A stretch of 19,848 bases of DNA from a virus (taxonomy: Duplodnaviria; Heunggongvirae; Uroviricota; Caudoviricetes): IMG/VR virus record IMGVR_UViG_2529293069_000013. The stretch is one strand, 5' to 3'. The notes below the pieces were generated by a model, which made no database searches, had not been told where the DNA came from, and saw nothing but the letters and a program-made list of their open reading frames with translations. The position numbers were made by a program, and so were the translations under genes. Below, in pieces: positions 11,831-16,429 of this stretch. The stretch's first letter is position 1, and every line of letters begins with the position of its first letter.

Positions 11831-12031
11831 GAAAATAAAGGGATAACGATGATAGTTTGAGAAAAACAGAAATAACACTTTTGTGGCAAAGCATGGTGCC
11901 GGGTGCCTCCCGGTGAATTCAGTATCAGCACCTGAATCCGCGATTACCCCATATTCCTTCTTGCTGATTGCCCCACCGCACAGGGGGATTCACCATGCAG
12001 AAGTGTTTTTAATAAACAGCAAACAAAAAAA

Positions 12032-12797: not shown

Positions 12798-12874
12798 TGG
12801 TGCGTTGTACTGGGTTCGAACCAGTGACCGATTGCTTAGAAGGCAATTGCTCTGTCCGGCTGAGCTAAAAACGC
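12798..12874 (-). tRNA. tRNA-Arg (anticodon UCU)
   Basis: 77-nt cloverleaf GCGTTTT-TA-GCTC..GAGC-ATTGC-CTTCTAA-GCAAT-..-CTGG-TTCGAAC-CCAG-ACAACGC-A-CCA; anticodon loop CU-UCU-AA. Confidence 0.85.
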
Positions 12875-12887
12875 AGAATACCGATAA

Positions 12888-12964
12888 TGGACCGCCATCG
12901 GAGACTCGAACCCCGCGAAACCAGCTTCGAAGGCTGGCGTTCTATCCCGATGAGCTAATGGCGG
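12888..12964 (-). tRNA. tRNA-Arg (anticodon UCG)
   Basis: 77-nt cloverleaf with anticodon arm CCAGC-CTTCGAA-GCTGG, T-arm CGGGG-TTCGAGT-CTCCG and a 7-bp acceptor stem plus TCCA; the D-stem has one mismatch. Confidence 0.75.
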
Positions 12965-12971
12965 TATGTGA

Positions 12972-13047
12972 TGGTGGCCCTTGCTGGATTTGAACCAGCG
13001 GCCTGGCGATTATGAGTCGCTCGCTCTCACCACTGAGCTAAAGGGCC
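12972..13047 (-). tRNA. tRNA-Ile2 (anticodon CAU, ileX/ileZ-like; Met cannot be excluded)
   Basis: GGCCCTTTAGCTCAGTGGTGAGAGCGAGCGACTCATAATCGCCAGGCCGCTGGTTCAAATCCAGCAAGGGCCACCA is very similar to E. coli ileX as I recall it; anticodon loop CU-CAU-AA. Confidence 0.85.
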
Positions 13048-14315: not shown

Positions 14316-15365
14316 TTACCCGAGCACGCCAGTCGCAAAGGCGTGATCAAGAAAACGAAAAATTAACTCAATCTGAGAGCCGTACTTTTTCTCAAACTCC
14401 AGCGGGTCTGCATGAAGTTCGTTGTGGTGCTCCCGGCACAACGGTAGCGTGAAAATATCGTGGGCCTTTGTCCCCATTCCCCCCTGACCATGACCAATCA
14501 GGTGATGCGGATCGTCAGCAGGCTTACCACAACACGCACACGGCTGTGTCTTTACCCAGCGCGTGTATTTCTCATTAACCCAACGGCAACGTTTAGGCCG
14601 CCTCATGAACGATTCAGGAGACTCCGGATCAACGGCGATACTGACAACCGTTTTTTTCTGTGGTGGATTTTGTTGCTGGTGGACGTGAAGTGGCAGCGCA
14701 ATATTTTTTGTGCGCTGCTTCAGTATGCTGATGGCTGTCTGTTCTCCCGGTACGATGTCACTCTCACGGTATACGGAGCGGATTTTTTCCGCTGGTAATC
14801 CCAGCGAACGACGCGCTACTGCCTCAGGTAGTGCATCCACCACCTGATTGCAGGCCGCCCACCAGGATAATTCAGCCAGCGATAATTCACGCTCCTGTGT
14901 GCCATTCATTGCGTGACGAATGACGTCAATCATCCATGCTGACAAGTTTTGGTGAGCAAGTTGCTCAAGTGATTCGGAGGTCTGGTCACGCAACTGGTTG
15001 TCGCAGTGCCAGCACAACACCATTGCGCCGGTACCATAACGGTGAATGACGGTTTCACTGTGGTGATAATCGCCGTGTGGCCACTGGCAGGATTTAACAT
15101 GGCGCAGTAACCAGTCAGACAATGCGCCAGCGCCACCAGCAGCACGAATCACTCGTTCGTCGCTGAAAAATGGCAGTAATGATTTATCCTCCGCCAGCGG
15201 CTGGCGAACGGCAGGAACGACCCCGGACGGCAGATTACGCATGCTTTTCGGTTCCGGCTCCACCAGTACCCGGGTATTGTGGAATACCGGCATGGATTCA
15301 CGGCCCGGCTTAACGATCACCAGCCCGAGTTCCGGTACCAGAACAGGTCGAAGTAATACCCGCAC
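14316..15365 (-). CDS. DUF968-family prophage protein (YdfU-like), 349 aa, with a Cys/His-rich C-terminal motif
   Basis: C-terminal CACCGKPADDPHHLIGHGQGGMGTKAHDIFTLPLCREHHNELH is a metal-binding, HNH-like signature; same length and position relative to Q as K-12 Qin ydfU as I recall it; GTG start. Confidence 0.6.
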   Translation of the reverse strand: MRVLLRPVLVPELGLVIVKPGRESMPVFHNTRVLVEPEPKSMRNLPSGVVPAVRQPLAEDKSLLPFFSDERVIRAAGGAGALSDWLLRHVKSCQWPHGDYHHSETVIHRYGTGAMVLCWHCDNQLRDQTSESLEQLAHQNLSAWMIDVIRHAMNGTQERELSLAELSWWAACNQVVDALPEAVARRSLGLPAEKIRSVYRESDIVPGEQTAISILKQRTKNIALPLHVHQQQNPPQKKTVVSIAVDPESPESFMRRPKRCRWVNEKYTRWVKTQPCACCGKPADDPHHLIGHGQGGMGTKAHDIFTLPLCREHHNELHADPLEFEKKYGSQIELIFRFLDHAFATGVLG

Positions 15366-15366
15366 G

Positions 15367-15645
15367 TTACCTCCAGATGCGTTGCTGGAATGTGCGGGAC
15401 GGACGCGGTGGGCGTTCGGAGTAAGGAAGCCTGACGGAGATTATCCAGTGACGATAATCGAGACTGAGGGCTTTCTTAACCTCGTATCCGCGCCTGCGGT
15501 AACACTGAATCAGCCATTCAGCCTGTTCTTCGGTGCAGGGGTCGTGCTGATACCAGTCAGATTTGAATGCATGAGAACGCCGCCCGTGCCTGCTGGCAGG
15601 GGCGGCAGAGTTATCCGAATTGTAAAATTTGGTATCGTGCGCCAT
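15367..15645 (-). CDS. Hypothetical protein, 92 aa (track ORF trimmed to ATG 15645 because the upstream part overlaps the hok terminator)
   Basis: MAHDTKFYNSDNSAAPASRHGRRSHAFKSDWYQHDPCTEEQAEWLIQCYRRRGYEVKK...; occupies the position of rem in Qin; weak RBS. Confidence 0.4.
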   Translation of the reverse strand: MAHDTKFYNSDNSAAPASRHGRRSHAFKSDWYQHDPCTEEQAEWLIQCYRRRGYEVKKALSLDYRHWIISVRLPYSERPPRPSRTFQQRIWR

Positions 15646-15711
15646 CTGTTTTCTCTGCTGGCGCAGCAGGTGCCAGTTGTTCAGGCTGACGGATGGATTG
15701 TAAACCAGAAC

Positions 15712-15744
15712 GACCAGAAAAAACAAAACCCGCCGAAGCGGGTT
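15712..15744 (-). terminator. Intrinsic terminator of the hok-like mRNA (stem AACCCGC-UUCG-GCGGGUU followed by UUUGUUUUUU)
   Basis: Hairpin 15727..15744 with a UUCG tetraloop; the minus-strand U-tract corresponds to the plus-strand A-run 15712..15726. Confidence 0.55.
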
Positions 15745-15812
15745 AAGTGCGGGTGCGTTGAGGATGCCTGACACATCAGCGGTGGCGAGGGATTTCTCCC
15801 CCGCCTGGTCTC

Positions 15813-15968
15813 TTACTCCTCAGGTTCGTAAGCTGTGAAGACAGCGACCTCCGTCTGGCCGGTTCGGATTCGTACCTCGCAGAGGTCTTTCCTCGTTACC
15901 AGTGCCGTCACTATGACGGTTAAACAGATGACGATCAGGGCGATTAACATCGCCTTTTGCTGCTTCAT
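15813..15968 (-). CDS. hok: Hok/Gef-family type I toxin, 51 aa
   Basis: MKQQKAMLIALIVICLTVIVTALVTRKDLCEVRIRTGQTEVAVFTAYEPEE against plasmid R1 Hok [58 protein letters not shown] RBS 9 nt upstream of ATG 15968. Confidence 0.8.
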   Translation of the reverse strand: MKQQKAMLIALIVICLTVIVTALVTRKDLCEVRIRTGQTEVAVFTAYEPEE

Positions 15969-16143
15969 AACCTGCTTCTCCTTGCCTTTCGGCGCGTAAG
16001 AGGCTAACCTACGTTTGTGAAGCATAGATTGGGCCTCAGATTAATGTTAAGCGTCTTGCAGGACGCGTAATGTTAACTGGGGCTTTTCTCTGTCTGCCTT
16101 ACGGTGGCATGCCCGAGGCAGACAGCCTCAAGCACCCGCAGCA

Positions 16144-16171
16144 ATTCTACTTAACTCTCGCTTTACAGCAA
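16144..16171 (-). promoter_or_regulatory. Putative promoter of the hok-like mRNA (-35 TTGCTG, 16-bp spacer, -10 TAGAAT)
   Basis: -35 at 16171..16166 and -10 at 16149..16144; the predicted transcript of about 420 nt ends at the 15712..15744 terminator, typical for hok mRNAs. Confidence 0.4.
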
Positions 16172-16211
16172 ACCGTTTTGCCCGATATGGGAATTCCCAT
16201 ACGGAATGAAT

Positions 16212-16316
16212 TCAGTTCCCCAGGCGCTCCATCAAAAACACAACCAGGCAGTAAACACCCACAACAGCAATAACAGCCAGAGCGCCTTCCATTACCAGTG
16301 AAATATCATCCGACAT
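16212..16316 (-). CDS. Small hydrophobic peptide, 34 aa, not in the ORF track
   Basis: ATG 16316 preceded by AAGGGAGGGAAT; hand translation MSDDISLVMEGALAVIAVVGVYCLVVFLMERLGN contains one transmembrane segment. Confidence 0.4.
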   Translation of the reverse strand: MSDDISLVMEGALAVIAVVGVYCLVVFLMERLGN

Positions 16317-16351: not shown

Positions 16352-16429
16352 TTACCCCCACCGACAAATAACATATACTAGAAAAGCAATAGCTATAGCA
16401 ACGCCTGCAAATGCATCTGGCCGGCTCAT
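16352..16429 (-). CDS. Small hydrophobic peptide, 25 aa, translationally coupled to the 187-aa gene
   Basis: ATG 16429..16427 overlaps the upstream TGA (ATGA); RBS GGGGGAG; hand translation MSRPDAFAGVAIAIAFLVYVICRWG. Confidence 0.4.
   Translation of the reverse strand: MSRPDAFAGVAIAIAFLVYVICRWG

Follow-up and report, generated by a model that had tools for sequence, protein, structure and literature searches.

The window analysed here, which is the whole 19,848-nucleotide stretch of the IMG/VR viral record IMGVR_UViG_2529293069_000013, contains on its minus strand, at positions 15718–16172, a complete and well-conserved hok/mok/sok type I toxin–antitoxin locus, carried by a lambda-like E. 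coli prophage. On the basis of the sequence comparisons described below, we are highly confident that the locus constitutes a complete and probably functional member of the hokD/hokW/hokC (gef) subgroup, and that it occupies the nin region of a prophage of the lambdoid type. The hok/mok/sok module itself is already known, and the locus is an ordinary prophage copy of it.

The original prediction had described a complete locus, provided with a promoter-like site of its own, a structured leader and a terminator: all three are present, and the locus does not have the appearance of a remnant. An antisense sok gene, which was absent from that description, was also found on the plus strand. The features of the locus are collected in Table 1. 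Conservation is given, throughout, for a set of 93 unique complete loci from IMG/VR viral contigs, sharing the tac sequence of the window; the spacing between mok and hok was scored in the same set.

Table 1. Elements of the hok/mok/sok locus, in window coordinates
Feature	Position	Strand	Description
hok/mok promoter-like site	16144..16172	-	-35 TTTGCT 16172-16167, 17-nt spacer, -10 TAGAAT 16149-16144
Predicted full-length hok mRNA, ~420 nt	15718..16137	-	5' end from homology to the Rfam/R1 leader start; 3' end at the terminator T-run
tac element (GGGUGCUUGAGG)	16126..16137	-	mRNA 5' end; predicted to pair with fbi (full-length fold) or ucb (3'-truncated folds)
Long 5' leader hairpin	16090..16125	-	Predicted fold
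ucb (anti-SD, AAGCCCC)	16079..16085	-	16083-16079 (GCCCC) predicted to mask the mok SD region of the full-length mRNA
mok Shine-Dalgarno GAGG	16034..16037	-	8 nt before ATG 16025; invariant in 93/93 relatives
mok reading frame, 70 codons	15813..16025	-	In frame with hok, common stop; layout as in mokW, Rac-SA53 mok and mokC
dcb (GCCUC)	16001..16005	-	Predicted to pair with the mok SD region in truncated mRNA; conserved in relatives
hok Shine-Dalgarno GGAG (within AAGGAGAAG)	15978..15981	-	Read from the sequence; conserved across aligned loci
hok toxin gene	15813..15968	-	51 aa; 100% identical to K-12 HokD (RelF); PF01848
GC-rich stable 3' hairpin	15784..15805	-	In MFE and centroid folds; counterpart of the protective stem-loop of truncated R1 hok mRNA
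fbi element (CCUCAACGCACCC)	15751..15763	-	Complementary to tac; 12 bp with one bulge in the MFE fold
Intrinsic terminator	15718..15744	-	AACCCGC-UUCG-GCGGGUU, 7-bp stem, stem-loop 15744-15727, then T-run
sok promoter	15982..16010	+	-35 TTGCCT 15982-15987, 17-nt spacer, -10 TAACCT 16005-16010
Predicted Sok RNA, ~71 nt	16017..16087	+	Ends by homology to annotated sokW (71 nt) and sokC

The toxin gene and its prophage neighbourhood

The assignment of the toxin gene to the Hok family, already made in the original prediction, is borne out both by the match of its product to the Pfam HOK_GEF family (E = 1.2e-23, 82.9 bits, with a cut-off of 22) and by its complete identity to HokD of E. coli K-12. 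The proposed location inside a prophage also holds, the gene being part of the nin region, with the replication genes on one side and Q on the other. In the corresponding prophage of O157:H7 PV15-279, cI/cro-like regulators and replication genes are followed by several small ORFs, hokD, DUF968, RusA, Q, three tRNAs, holin and lysozyme, all of them co-oriented with hok.

The 601 nt surrounding the locus are found as 100% identical copies in many O157:H7/EHEC chromosomes, where the coding sequence is annotated as hokD (PGAP/RefSeq). When matches of lower identity are included, some match to the same 601 nt is found in 4751 of the 5426 complete E. coli genomes, the number of matching places per genome having a median of two and a maximum of 11. 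Of this locus, RefSeq labels the hokD CDS alone, to which annotation of mok, of Sok and of the elements of the mRNA could be added. Beyond correct annotation, the relevance of the finding is little.

The absence of accompanying RelBE genes, which had been pointed out as a difference from the hokD of Qin, was confirmed: tblastn searches with the K-12 RelB, RelE and Rem proteins revealed no similarity anywhere in the window. The relBE-hokD (relBEF) operon arrangement of Qin is not the one found here, where relBE is missing and a full leader is present.

Two tiny hydrophobic ORFs lie on the minus strand just upstream of the hok promoter, at 16212-16316 and 16352-16429. One encodes 34 amino acids (MSDDISLVMEGALAVIAVVGVYCLVVFLMERLGN) and is a RefSeq hypothetical, the other encodes 25; neither of them has a Pfam match. 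On the other side of the locus, the region downstream of the Q antiterminator gene in which the tRNAs lie is the site where Stx phages carry stx. Located here, at 11855-12027 and 12801-13047 of the minus strand, are a match of 100.8 bits to the Rfam STnc100 sRNA and three tRNA genes, which are Ile, Arg and Arg according to the RefSeq annotation of the identical O157 prophage.

Within hok, the Tyr47 codon (15827-15830, minus strand) is a UAC followed by G, which makes up the TadA editing motif UACG. According to the predicted fold, the motif belongs to a loop of 9 nt with CAG/CUG closing it, and it is kept in about 89 of the 93 relatives; in the hokD mRNA of K-12, A-to-I editing has been reported to convert this Tyr to Cys (PMC5630033).

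Transcript, regulatory elements and antisense RNA

The promoter-like site from which the locus was thought to be transcribed is indeed recognizable. It escaped a simple promoter scan, and its -35 hexamer matches the consensus in only 3 of 6 positions, but its -10 hexamer is conserved in both position and sequence: the distance from it to the leader's first base is 6 nt both in the window and in the 933W, Rac-SA53, PPompW, P1-like, hokB and hokC loci (5-6 nt in those of the R1 type), and the hexamer is nearly invariant among the 93 relatives, with T1, A5 and T6 conserved in all. The scan flagged a different sequence, TTAACA-18-TATGCT, inside the leader (16050..16021, minus strand); this is probably a chance match, because transcription from it would begin just downstream of the mok ATG.

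A structured leader of roughly 190 nt had been expected. The structured nature of the leader is supported by a match to RF01794, extending from 16137 to 15963 on the minus strand and covering the full model (1-157), at E = 6.5e-26 and 114.9 bits, where 59 is the gathering score; its length, in contrast, is about 169 nt, when counted from the putative 5' end at 16137 to the hok AUG. The long hairpin originally placed at 16087..16123 agrees well with the one predicted by folding of the minus strand, and the UUCG-loop terminator is also found. RF01794, named 'sok antitoxin', models the leader strand of the hok mRNA up to the hok AUG; the K-12 match lies on the hokC/mokC strand, opposite to the annotated sokC. 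Since the model describes the hok-mRNA strand, the minus-strand match is evidence for the leader, not for Sok, and taking it as the antitoxin gene would place Sok on the wrong strand. No RF01794 match was obtained for two more distant phage hits, Salmonella ZC-S1_prp and phi191, which were of no use for comparing tac with fbi.

The predicted 420-nt mRNA (16137..15718) folds with a minimum free energy of -174.9 kcal/mol, corresponding to a z of -6.5 relative to shuffled sequences. Inspection of the folds for tac/fbi-type elements located tac/fbi, ucb and dcb in silico, and all the regulatory elements of the R1 type are, by this prediction, present in the locus. In the full-length fold, tac and fbi form a duplex of -21.5 kcal/mol and the mok SD is sequestered by ucb, while in the fold of the nascent 50-nt RNA tac is contained in a local metastable hairpin, matching the R1 model. 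Removal of the 3' end was simulated by refolding the RNA at four end points between 15765 and 15782: tac switches to ucb (16085-16079) in all four truncated folds, and the mok SD region pairs with dcb in three of them. A closed-to-open switch of this type has been described for the R1 mRNA (PMC9841398). In the truncated fold, dcb still keeps the mok SD paired, a situation shared with the R1 model, so that the fold alone is no proof of translational activation. By analogy with the same model (PMC9841398), the GC-rich hairpin at the 3' side of hok may have a protective role.

Comparison among loci is in agreement with these pairings. That between tac and fbi is kept, through changes on both sides, in hokB (tac GGGUGCCUGAGA, fbi UCUCAUGGCACCC) and in R1 (GGCGCUU/AAGCGCC), and the most variable fbi position among the 93 relatives is the bulged C at 15757. 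Hardly any variation affects ucb, dcb, fbi and the sok -35 and -10 hexamers in these 93 loci, 92 of which retain the mok ATG.

The hexamers of the sok promoter and their spacing are identical to those found upstream of the annotated sokW of 933W, and are conserved in the 93 relatives; being a weak match to the consensus, this promoter too was left unflagged by the simple scan. The predicted Sok RNA starts with a G at 16017 and features a single-stranded 5' tail of 14 nt, followed by a long hairpin and, at the end, by CUUUU. Its folding energy is -29.2 kcal/mol (z = -5.2), and it is complementary to ucb, to the mok SD and to the mok AUG.

The most variable transcribed stretch among the relatives, on either strand, is 16011-16031, which coincides at once with the Sok 5' tail and with mok codons 2-5 plus the bases flanking the mok ATG. 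Co-resident loci of one genome differ in this stretch, as seen in two pairs from IMG/VR genomes. Judging from these sequences, the variability may be related to the specificity of Sok between paralogues.

The conservation of the locus also bears on the possibility that it is a decayed or silent remnant, complete in its appearance and yet unexpressed or unable to kill. We regard this as improbable, since none of the regulatory elements is damaged and all of them hardly vary among the 93 relatives, no IS element adjoins the locus, unlike what is found for K-12 hokA, hokC and hokE, and the leader has not been replaced by relE, as it has in K-12 hokD; moreover, the 92%-identical hokW-sokW is functional (PMC8621323), and the ORF is identical to that of HokD, a peptide which is toxic on overexpression (bioRxiv 10.1101/2025.08.07.668861). 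Some doubt is nevertheless raised by the poor match of both promoters to the consensus, and by the chromosomal hokA, hokB and hokC, for which the same preprint (bioRxiv 10.1101/2025.08.07.668861) reports a lack of post-segregational killing, attributing the finding to its ref. 26: in view of such inactive loci, an intact anatomy is no guarantee of killing activity.

The mok frame and its spacing from hok

The ORF list and the sequence bear out the observation that an ATG at 16025, preceded by GAGG, opens a 70-codon frame in phase with hok; the two ATGs are separated by 57 nt. The accompanying remark, that canonical mok overlaps hok in a different frame, is correct for R1/R100, where the offset is 58 nt, but not for mokW, mokC, mokA and the mok of Rac-SA53, all of which are in frame and annotated as sharing their stop with hok; the K-12 mokB, instead, ends at a stop which is not common with hok. 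The suggestion that the layout may be atypical was, as a consequence of these annotated cases and of the prevalence of the in-frame state among the relatives, rejected. In-frame mok genes have long been known, as documented by database annotation, namely that of the 933W record AF125520 and of K-12 mokC and mokA. The out-of-frame geometry of R1, with its 58-nt offset, is not the one found in the window, and is not a trait defining the family.

Among the 93 unique loci, the spacing is 57 nt, in frame, in 76 cases. It is 56 nt in 9 loci, in which mok has 19 codons and its TGA stop overlaps the hok start codon as ATGA; single loci have spacings of 58 nt (out of frame, +1, as in R1) and 54 nt (in frame); the remaining 6 contain no intact hok. 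The same variation is met elsewhere: a P1-like locus, 88% identical in DNA to the window, has a 58-nt spacing, and in pMTY1886, an IncFII plasmid encoding the same Hok as R1, the spacing is 57 nt, with mok in frame. The canonical R1/R100 sequence, with 58 nt between the ATGs, is found with at least 99% identity in 2656 plasmid records, and with 100% identity in R100 (NC_002134); the figure agrees with the R1 numbering, which places the mok start at A116 and that of hok at A174 (PMC9841398).

The flips between 57 and 58 nt in close relatives indicate that the frame drifts by single-base indels. Free variation among 56, 57 and 58 nt fits the notion that translation of mok, and not the Mok peptide, is what counts; for R1, what is reported to matter is that mok be translated as far as the hok start, and not the peptide produced (PMC9841398). 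The dominance of the 57-nt spacing could have shared ancestry alone as its simple cause. A different proposal, which we consider rather unlikely, is that the in-frame mok provides a second proteoform, a 70-aa N-extended Hok with distinct membrane targeting or toxicity, and that the hypervariable stretch common to the Sok 5' tail and mok codons 2-5 undergoes diversifying selection, by which the 6-8 prophage hok/sok copies residing together in one EHEC genome remain orthogonal to each other.

It is very improbable that the 70-codon ORF, in frame, preceded by GAGG in 93 of 93 relatives, opened by an ATG in 92 and associated with the spacing dominant in the set (76/93), is itself the real toxin, an N-extended Hok whose internal hok start is not separately used, since hok has a conserved AAGGAGAAG SD and ATG of its own, K-12 hokD retains only the region from the hok SD onward, close relatives with a spacing of 56 or 58 nt keep hok and lose the fusion, mok codons 2-5 are hypervariable, and stop codons in the R1 mok frame downstream of the hok start leave Hok unaffected (PMC9841398).

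Proposed control and comparison with known systems

A hok/mok/sok module, with hok as the toxin gene and mok as the overlapping frame controlling it, would be expected to work according to the R1 paradigm, which folding in silico supports for the locus of the window. A weak constitutive promoter would produce a stable mRNA of about 420 nt, in whose nascent form the 5' tac would be held in a local hairpin. In the finished RNA, the pairing of tac to fbi, together with the location of ucb over the mok SD, would prevent both the translation of mok and hok and the binding of Sok. Slow trimming of the 3' end would remove fbi, and the RNA would refold into the tac/ucb and SD/dcb pairings, exposing the mok start region as a hairpin. 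In cells carrying the prophage, the short-lived Sok would pair with this RNA via its 5' tail, and RNase III would destroy the duplex; should the supply of Sok stop, mok would be translated and the hok start site opened, leading to synthesis of Hok, a 51-aa membrane peptide predicted to depolarise the inner membrane. The mok product would here be a 70-aa N-extended Hok, the decisive feature presumably being translation through the hok start region, and not the frame.

By analogy with known systems, post-segregational stabilisation, phage exclusion and help to lysis on induction are candidate roles of the locus for the prophage. The hok gene is co-oriented with the early rightward operon, and one may speculate that read-through at induction adds hok message.

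The closest named relative is the mokW/hokW/sokW locus of 933W, an Stx2 phage corresponding to Sakai Sp5 (AF125520), which aligns to the window with 92% DNA identity over about 440 nt. Its record features a 213-nt mokW and a 156-nt hokW with a common stop, along with an antisense sokW of 71 nt that overlaps the start of mokW. The two loci share a leader of 169 nt, an in-frame mok of 70 codons, a hok of 51 aa, identical tac, fbi and sok -35 and -10 hexamers, and the same architecture of a 71-nt Sok. They differ in four C-terminal residues of Hok (…FTAYEPEE in the window, …FVDYESEK in HokW), and at 5 of the first 16 nt of the Sok 5' tail and its target region. In addition, hokW lacks the UUCG terminator, which the window has in common with K-12 hokD and PPompW, and is located near one end of the phage genome, whereas the hok of the window lies in the nin region. 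Experiments have established the hokW-sokW pair as a type I system, with a toxin controlled by Sok; the sokW antitoxin depends in part on RNase III and Hfq, and the system aids the release of Sp5 after treatment with mitomycin C (PMC8621323).

The Hok protein of the window is 100% identical to that encoded by hokD (relF) of the K-12 Qin prophage, and the DNA that runs from the hok SD to the terminator, with the CDS and fbi in between (window 15719-15982), is 98% identical. Upstream of the position equivalent to 15982, in contrast, relE abuts the hok SD in Qin, where promoter, tac, ucb, mok start, sok promoter and Sok are all missing; RF01794 finds no match in the Qin hokD stretch. The two genes lie in neighbourhoods of the same type, upstream of a DUF968/YdfU gene and of Q. 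The DUF968 YdfU-like protein of the window (14316-15662) is 85% identical to the YdfU of Qin, and the Qin rem, found between hokD and ydfU, is without counterpart in the window. As Qin lacks the leader and has relE in its place, while the full form is present in the window, K-12 hokD is the truncated derivative of a prophage hok/sok locus that is both widespread and fully equipped.

The hokC (gef) locus of K-12 features the same tac as the window and an in-frame mokC of 69 codons, sharing its stop with hokC, as well as an annotated antisense sokC overlapping the mok start; its RF01794 match scores 118 bits. It differs from the locus of the window, which no IS element adjoins, in that IS186 begins 20 nt after the hokC stop. 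The only 3' complement of its tac that was found is weaker (-17.9 versus -21.5 kcal/mol), and about 20 nt of the Sok-hairpin region are missing from its leader.

In the hok/mok/sok (parB) locus of the R1/R100 plasmids the same elements follow one another in the same order, namely tac, ucb, mok SD and ATG, dcb, hok SD and ATG, 3' hairpin and fbi, and the antisense Sok is preceded, as in the window, by a promoter of the TTG…-17-TA…CT type. Sequence similarity is only distant: an identity of 44% to the R1 Hok is given for HokW (PMC8621323), which is near-identical to the Hok of the window. The two loci are further distinguished by the frame of mok, which is +1 in R1/R100 (58 nt; PMC9841398) and in phase with hok in the window (57 nt), and by their replicons, since the former is borne by plasmids and the latter by a prophage.
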